From: Acutalibacter sp. 1XD8-36
GTDB lineage: Bacteria; Bacillota; Clostridia; Oscillospirales; Acutalibacteraceae
Assembly (NCBI RefSeq): GCF_009917525.1
Contig: NZ_QZDU01000003.1
Location: forward strand, 267,547 to 291,546
Length of the DNA: 24,000 nucleotides
Direction of reading: 5' to 3'
The notes beneath the pieces are model-generated. The model searched no databases, was not told where the DNA came from, and worked only from the letters and a program-made list of their open reading frames with translations. Each line of letters opens with the position of its first letter. The stretch's first letter is position 1. Made by a program: the position numbers and the translations under genes. Positions 10,117 to 10,215 of the stretch are shown piece by piece.

Positions 10117-10162
10117 AAAAAAAAGACGGCTTCCACGCAAAAAGTACGCTGGAAACCGTCTT
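10117..10162 (-). terminator. Rho-independent terminator downstream of the tRNA fragment
   Basis: The minus strand reads AAGACGG-TTTCCAGCGTACTTTTTGCGTGGAAG-CCGTCTT followed by TTTTTT. The outer stem is 7 bp, an inner TTCCA/TGGAA pairing adds to it, and the T-run totals 8. It starts 8 nt after the CCA end. Confidence 0.6.
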
Positions 10163-10169
10163 GAAAATT

Positions 10170-10215
10170 TGGTTGCGGGGGCAGGATTTGAACCTGCGAC
10201 CTTCGGGTTATGAGC
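10170..10215 (-). other. Truncated tRNA: 3' 46 nt of an initiator-type tRNA-Met(CAU); putative att core/junction
   Basis: The minus strand reads GCTCATAACCCGAAGGTCGCAGGTTCAAATCCTGCCCCCGCAACCA. This covers the anticodon loop CTCATAA, the 3' anticodon stem CCC, the variable loop, a complete T arm (GCAGG-TTCAAAT-CCTGC) and the 3' acceptor strand ending A72-A73-CCA. The sequence 5' of it (..GCGGCTCACCACA) has no D arm and cannot pair with the acceptor strand. Confidence 0.8.

Follow-up and report, generated by a model that had tools for sequence, protein, structure and literature searches.

The question raised by this locus is why the 3' half of an initiator tRNA gene, closely followed by a hairpin, occurs without its 5' half within the 24,000 nucleotides of DNA that were analysed (the window), with a sugar-utilisation cluster and an APH-like gene on its low-coordinate side. 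The first-pass annotation had interpreted the fragment as an att-type junction, and this interpretation is borne out: the repeat is the 3' part of a tRNA, its arm repeats are conserved, and relatives repeat exactly that segment. The reading that we favour, with a probability of roughly 80%, is that the 46-nt piece represents the attR-type repeat of a tRNA-fMet-specific tyrosine-integrase mobilizable element (IME) that has recombined with the initiator tRNA gene.

The fragment was read directly from the window (minus strand of 10215..10170: GCTCATAACCCGAAGGTCGCAGGTTCAAATCCTGCCCCCGCAACCA). Its 5' part holds the last G of the 5' anticodon-stem strand, the anticodon loop CTCATAA and the 3' stem strand CCC, and its 3' part the variable loop, the T arm, the acceptor 3' strand, A72, A73 and CCA. 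The initiator hallmarks that had been proposed, the CCC anticodon-stem strand and A72/A73 ahead of CCA, are therefore visible in the sequence itself. Aligned over its full length to annotated tRNA-Met genes, the 46-mer agrees at 43 of 46 positions (in all 5426 E. coli genomes), and the agreement of the fragment with a tRNA 3' part over 46 of 46 positions cannot be due to chance. ARAGORN, run over the whole window, called no tRNA gene, so that no intact, unusual tRNA is found at the site, and Rfam at gathering threshold gave no match in the window; at a permissive threshold the T arm alone scores (RF00005, 15.7 bits, model positions 43-63). When the 5' half of a relative's tRNA-fMet was joined to the 46-mer, the chimera was called as tRNA-Met(CAT) by ARAGORN; the window region alone was not called. 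A tRNA 5' half was absent from the window in a search that allowed at most 6 mismatches in 31 nt, and the bases directly 5' of the fragment, GGCTCACCACA, resemble neither a tRNA D arm nor an anticodon stem. The fragment is thus exactly the 46-nt tRNA-fMet 3' half, lacking its 5' counterpart, that had been claimed.

The hairpin on its 3' side has a stem of about 17 pairs followed by a U-run, and the 131-nt region that contains it folds with an MFE of -41.6 kcal/mol (z = -3.5); it was overlooked by a simple terminator scan because of the loop rule of that scan. The hairpin with T8 past the CCA end was thereby confirmed as predicted from the letters, except for its spacing, which had been given as 8 nt and measures 7-9 nt, varying with the stem start that is chosen. 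On the 3' side of the terminator the ribosome-binding site and ATG of the APH(6)-like kinase gene follow (9128-10060, minus strand). The terminator may have either of two origins, the native flank of the tRNA or the element. The positions of all features are collected in Table 1.

Table 1. Coordinates, strand and basis of the features recognised in the window.
Feature	Position	Strand	Basis
Intrinsic terminator: hairpin stem (10162..10123) and T8	10117..10162	-	folding
C1, att core repeat: 46-nt copy of the tRNA-fMet 3' part	10170..10215	-	sequence, tRNA alignments, relatives
GGCTCACCACA: last bases of the P arm, abutting the core	10216..10226	-	identical beside the integrase-side copy of L027
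CTGACCCA repeat pair, 12 nt apart, presumed arm-type integrase-binding sites	10330..10349	-	conserved spacing in relatives
Motif M1 (tRNA strand: CTTTTTCTTTGTTTAGCGGCGCAATTTTTGAG), outermost part of the P arm that can be recognised	10386..10417	-	sequence comparison
Probable island cargo	10418..21622	.	gene calls; relatives carry cargo in the same position
Motif M2, 4 nt past the DUF6076 stop codon; start of the mobility module	21623..21654	-	sequence comparison
DUF6076 gene (323 aa in the gene calls of relatives)	21659..22630	-	domain match
Excisionase-like HTH_17 gene, 71 aa	22793..23008	+	domain match
HTH_36 gene, 120 aa	23001..23363	+	domain match
Start of the 135-aa ORF, cut at the window end; precedes the MobL and integrase genes in L027	23683..24000	+	collinearity with L027

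We then inspected the DNA on the 5' side of the fragment. Approximately 200 nt (10216-10417) proved to be homologous to the integrase-proximal end of a mobilizable element of 5.4 kb, and the fragment is therefore no random truncation. Within this stretch, which we refer to as the P arm, the two CTGACCCA repeats lie 122 and 134 nt 5' of the core, and a YTGACCCA pair is found at the same distance in the related contig L027 and at the distal junctions of four other relatives (L038, L046, L086 and L051). Lambda-type attachment sites have a known architecture in which a core is flanked by integrase-binding arms, and by analogy the YTGACCCA repeats may be the arm-type sites of the integrase. On the 3' side of C1 no such pair occurs in the window, and the 3' flank with its hairpin is without a homolog in L027 and in 90 related loci. 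The succession of P arm and core, followed by DNA that is not a P' arm (no YTGACCCA pair, no homology to related loci), identifies the junction as attR-type, with the element on the high-coordinate side. That the island would lie above 10215, as had been proposed, is in line with the P-arm homology, the arm-type repeats and motif M at 10216-10417.

Motif M, a 32-nt sequence with conserved outer halves and a variable centre, is present in the window as M1 and M2 and in L027 at 12451-12481 and 14037-14068, and many relatives also have it some 100 nt ahead of the integrase gene; it is probably a protein-binding site. Because it stands at the limits of the mobility module in L027, L029 and L037, motif M was also considered as the crossover site of the element. 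This was rejected as the main reading because the motif lies inside the P arm of L046, an element that is bounded by the tRNA, and about 100 nt before the integrase gene of many relatives. A direct repeat of 12 nt without mismatches (tRNA strand: GCTCACCACAGC) was also observed at 10433-10444 and 10214-10225, one copy lying across the P-arm/core junction and the other 16 nt outside motif M1; it is possibly the stub of another junction, or due to chance.

A half tRNA that tRNA finders leave uncalled is also what a tRNA pseudogene would look like, and the strong terminator behind the fragment, together with the complete identity of the surrounding 161 nt in all five full-spanning contigs of the lineage (contigs 99% identical to the window, sampled from several metagenome projects), could be taken to indicate an origin without a mobile element, either as a pseudogene left by a plain deletion or as a functional tRNA-like RNA that has a terminator of its own. 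We consider this extremely improbable. The truncation point and the upstream sequence belong to an element arm and not to a random deletion: the 5' break coincides with the repeat-boundary base of every integrated relative, and the conserved arm in the upstream 200 nt contradicts such an origin. Furthermore, no promoter-like site was found in 9800-10700, no Rfam family was matched, and APH-like genes of 66-75% identity in other organisms occur without the block.

The integrase end of the element was recovered in L027, a 70-kb contig (ena:ERZ17911632:SRR10078221_249) that was found with the HTH_36 protein and that is 96% identical and collinear to window positions 13685-23995. Past the equivalent of the window end it encodes the 135-aa ORF, a MobL relaxase and a 382-aa tyrosine integrase. 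The integrase gene occupies the window-equivalent of approximately 25.6-26.7 kb, about 2.6 kb past the window end, which agrees with the prediction that an integrase lies beyond 24000. The 5.4-kb module (L027 8624-14068) combines an integrase and a relaxase without a conjugative pore: it contains only the 135-aa ORF and the genes for which Pfam returned DUF6076, HTH_17, HTH_36, MobL and Phage_integrase, and type IV secretion genes are lacking from it.

About 100 nt past the stop codon of the L027 integrase a 187-nt homolog (85%) of window positions 10163-10348 was found, with an exact block of 64 nt that consists of GGCTCACCACA, the 46-mer and AATTTTC. The tRNA piece and its 5' junction are hence a conserved part of the element, not a unique chromosomal scar. 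Both the window copy and the integrase-side copy of L027 carry a CTGACCCA-type pair, 12 nt apart, and motif M. The L027 copy of the 46-mer is in direct orientation to that of the window, at a window-equivalent of up to about 26.9 kb and some 16.7 kb from it, so that the direct repeat beside a tyrosine integrase is observed in this 96% relative of the window. We infer that the genome of the window itself has an integrase-side copy of the L027 type. The contigs of the 99% lineage all end at about 23985-24416, which fits the presence of several variants of the element in the same samples. At least three ENA contigs of this lineage (L001, L011/L117 and L118) stop at the equivalent of about 23985, and L119 stops at about 24416.

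One expectation failed. An intact tRNA-fMet had been predicted beside the integrase; L027 has a bare 46-mer there, and the 6.3 kb beyond the integrase yielded no intact tRNA in L027 (by ARAGORN) or in L131. The integrase-side 46-mer of L027 has another P arm (repeat pair and motif M) on its 5' side and no completed tRNA; the classical attL is consequently missing and the site looks like an unrecombined attP.

We then collected the related integrases more broadly. When metagenome contigs were scanned with the integrase of L027, 80 loci at 69-94% identity were obtained. In about 13 of these an intact initiator-type tRNA-Met(CAT) lies approximately 130 nt from the integrase stop codon, on the opposite strand and often with a tRNA-Leu(TAA) just upstream of it. 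Both ends of the element are on the contig in L038, L046 and L086, where a repeat of 46-47 nt recurs 3.6, 8.0 and 6.4 kb away, respectively; the distal repeat runs from the same G before CTCATAA as in the window to CCA and is followed by a hairpin. Between hosts the tRNA part varies by compensated changes in the T stem, and the two copies of any one locus are identical. A second YTGACCCA pair is present in relatives between the tRNA or repeat and the integrase stop codon. Two integrases, or an integrase and a fragment, stand in series at the tRNA-fMet in L075, L065, L059 and L047, with two integrases at one tRNA-fMet in L047, L065 and L075. In about 20 of the 80 relatives the integrase lies beside a bare fragment with a P arm and without an intact tRNA.

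Some further loci recovered in these searches differ in their target or context. A subgroup at 69-71% identity (L098, L100, L102, L104, L106 and L071) represents a switch of target within the family, its integrase lying about 130 nt from a tRNA-Arg(ACG) and not from a tRNA-fMet. A virome record (MT839957.1; 5.6 kb, integrase 70% identical) was set aside as a match, since it has the integrase-side arm repeats and lacks the tRNA-fMet piece. The plasmid database, searched with the whole element, returned tRNA-like matches and one integrase match, and nothing else.

The attP-like site inside L027 is most simply read as the product of tandem accretion, in which one element inserts into the distal junction of another that is already resident. 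Insertion at such a junction would yield an internal site that resembles attP, and the resident of L027 would have been reduced to its P arm. Tandem accretion at one att site is known, for example, from ICESt1/ICESt3 and cis-mobilizable elements in Streptococcus thermophilus, and here too an internal att site with the arms of two elements would resemble attP; the difference is that the upstream neighbour in L027 consists of a P arm alone (about 240 nt), and the remainder, tRNA included, is unseen within 6 kb. A more far-reaching view is that the family cycles through tRNA-less landing pads, in which a leftover P arm and the 46-nt core serve as the site, and that motif M, which is found on both sides of the cargo and ahead of the integrase gene, is a second protein-binding or recombination site for the exchange of cargo. 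Islands would then insert and excise without the need for a functional tRNA gene. The relatives with a bare fragment fit landing pads, and they fit tandem arrays or assembled circular forms equally well. We regard this view as distinctly unlikely.

The P arm is separated from the mobility module by approximately 11 kb with chromosomal G+C content. The first part encodes a chimeric, frameshifted MatE, a 54-aa ORF, an MFS transporter, a DUF362 protein, an AlkZ-related protein and an acetyltransferase, and the rest a MatE, an aldo-keto reductase with an Fe-S domain, a further MatE that is interrupted by a nonsense codon, a 133-aa ORF and an SDR whose 3' tail is foreign. The chimeric MatE (10462-11873, minus strand; frameshift near 10990-11073) has 225 N-terminal codons that are orthologous to an intact 458-aa MatE of the 96% lineage, with homology ending at about 11197, and a C half that is just about 25% identical to the family of its N half; its product of 282 aa has an identical counterpart among the NCBI proteins of Acutalibacter sp. 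1XD8-36. The MatE gene at 18912-20273 (plus strand) carries a single C-to-T change that creates a stop at about 19959-19961. In the 99.9%-identical relative L117 the gene is intact (453 aa), so that the stop may reflect a recent pseudogene, a strain variant or a sequencing error. The SDR gene (20678-21436, 252 aa) has a C-terminal tail of 15 aa that is absent from the homologs of 235-238 aa; homology to the 88% ortholog in L128 stops at about 21367 and the tail starts at about 21368. Downstream of its SDR gene, L128 carries a gene for a flavin reductase as well as ICE-like genes (relaxase, Toprim, Y-family polymerase).

It is this interval that makes room for another account of the junction. 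Positions 10163-10417 could be the remnant of an older element of the same family, unrelated to the seemingly live element that starts at 21623; the 11 kb would then be chromosome and the locus would have received two nearby insertions. The host-like G+C content of the interval, the lack of mobility genes between the P arm and the module and the rearrangement junctions inside it, of which there are at least two (near 11197 and near 21368), indeed imply that the 11 kb might be chromosome rather than cargo. The P arms of the window and L027 are, moreover, just about 80% identical outside the exact 64-nt block, and the integrase-side copy of L027 already owns a P arm. Against this, the P arm at the integrase-side copy of a tandem array is that of the neighbouring element, so that the two arms may differ; both copies are direct and in the order expected of a single island; and in L046 and L059, too, the mobility genes are separated from the distal P arm by ordinary genes over several kb. 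In L046, which holds a complete element from tRNA-fMet to distal repeat, the cargo encodes a peptidase, a LysR regulator, a lipase-like protein and a membrane protein, and in L059 the stretch from the P arm to the genes of the next element includes a Mn catalase, VanY, a two-component system and a sigma factor. We therefore hold two separate insertions to be possible, if somewhat unlikely, and take the 11 kb, by comparison with these relatives, as probable cargo of the same element as the mobility module.

We also searched for versions of the locus in other contexts. Among the strains sampled none was free of the island or of the fragment; all carry the block and the element, and none offers an empty attachment site. 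The APH-like protein, compared with genome contigs, gave just relatives of 42-44% identity in Bacillaceae, without synteny, and its homologs in other organisms at 75, 72 and 66% identity lie in unrelated contexts without a tRNA piece. Exact patterns for the junctions between tRNA end and flank and between P arm and core had no matches in JGI metagenomes and IMG/VR, and look-up of the 345-aa DUF6076 ORF and of the window's 71-aa Xis-like protein gave no record. The representative of the 97% APH cluster (L127; ERZ13410265 NODE_14269) has a Nextera adapter (…GTCTCGTGGGCTCGGAGATGTGTATAAGAGACAG) at positions 1-45; it is uninformative because the adapter is fused 20 nt upstream of the start codon of the APH-like gene.

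Indirect information on a second copy came from breaks in the assembly graph. On the MatE side the Logan contigs (k=31) end at 10196 in 7 samples from 3 projects, and on the APH side they begin at 10152 in 6 samples and at 10154 in a seventh. The break at 10196 implies that the 30-mer across the P-arm/core junction has a second context, and this 30-mer was seen directly beside the integrase in L027; the break thus gives indirect support for a second copy in the lineage of the window. The other break, at 10152, falls within the terminator stem, and a second copy of the L027 type does not account for it. This break implies that the hairpin has a second context as well, or carries a strain polymorphism.

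The latter break bears on a further alternative, according to which the locus is a truncated attP: the terminator would be that of the element's own P' arm, the integrase side would have been deleted and the 3' flank would not be native. If the restart at 10152 means that the 30-mer 10152..10123 has a second context, one exact 103-nt second copy of 10225..10123 would account for both breaks. The first 7 nt past CCA (AATTTTC) are common to the P' arm of L027, and the P' arms of the element family likewise begin with a terminator hairpin. This origin is nonetheless unlikely in our view: the hairpin has no counterpart in L027 or in the 90 related loci, no YTGACCCA pair lies 3' of it, and a SNP in the stem, near a repeat hub, could break the graph too, in keeping with the one sample that breaks 2 nt off.

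Under the preferred reading of an attR-type junction, the locus could have arisen as follows. The attP of the element would consist of the 46-nt tRNA 3' part between two arms, each with a YTGACCCA pair; the P arm would add motif M, and the P' arm would have its own terminator and run into the stop codon of the integrase gene. Strand exchange would take place at the anticodon loop, a crossover position that we infer, and the element's copy of the 3' part would rebuild an intact tRNA beside the integrase. At the far end the P arm would after integration be joined to the other 46-nt copy, and it is this end that the window would display: motif M1, the pair of arm sites, GGCTCACCACA, the 46-mer, the terminator and the APH-like gene. 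The body of the island would extend toward higher coordinates, with about 11 kb of partly pseudogenised cargo for efflux and detoxification, and from 21623 the mobility module, in which DUF6076, the Xis-like gene and HTH_36 would be followed by the 135-aa ORF, the MobL relaxase and the integrase past the end of the window.

Insertion of elements with tyrosine integrases into tRNA genes, with repetition of the 3' part, is textbook knowledge; the element supplies a replacement 3' end of the tRNA and the original 3' fragment stays with its native flank at the distal junction. Sublocation classes of tRNA-gene integration were reportedly distinguished by Williams (Nucleic Acids Res, 2002). The locus shares with the tRNA-targeting islands, prophages and integrative elements the repeat of the 3' part from anticodon loop to CCA, the arm-type repeats that flank the core, the integrase beside a rebuilt tRNA (here in relatives) and an element that supplies the 3' end and a terminator. 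It differs in its target, an initiator tRNA, and in that the tRNA 5' half is missing from the integrase-side copy of the nearest relative, which leaves no functional tRNA rebuilt at that locus.

IMEs of Firmicutes have an integrase and a relaxase and are devoid of conjugation pore genes. Surveys of such elements in streptococci are said to have been made by Coluzzi, Guedon and colleagues. The present element resembles them in its small module (an excisionase-like HTH protein, a replication or regulation HTH protein, a relaxase and a tyrosine integrase), its variable cargo and the absence of type IV secretion genes. It is set apart by the combination of DUF6076, HTH_17, HTH_36, the 135-aa ORF and MobL, by the tRNA-fMet target and by its hosts, gut Clostridia of the Oscillospirales type. 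In the literature searched, no description was found of the element family, of this gene set or of the strain; the family and its target thus appear to be undescribed, although the mechanism itself is well known.

The finding of an island boundary leaves the general understanding of such elements unchanged and is ordinary biology. For the organism, it delimits an island of roughly 17 kb with efflux and detoxification genes in an Acutalibacter-like genome from the mouse gut. For the family, it ties the DUF6076/HTH_17/HTH_36/MobL gene set to integrases that target the initiator tRNA gene, and it provides, in the 46-mer with the YTGACCCA pair and motif M, a signature for the ends of these elements in gut metagenomes, where they break assemblies.
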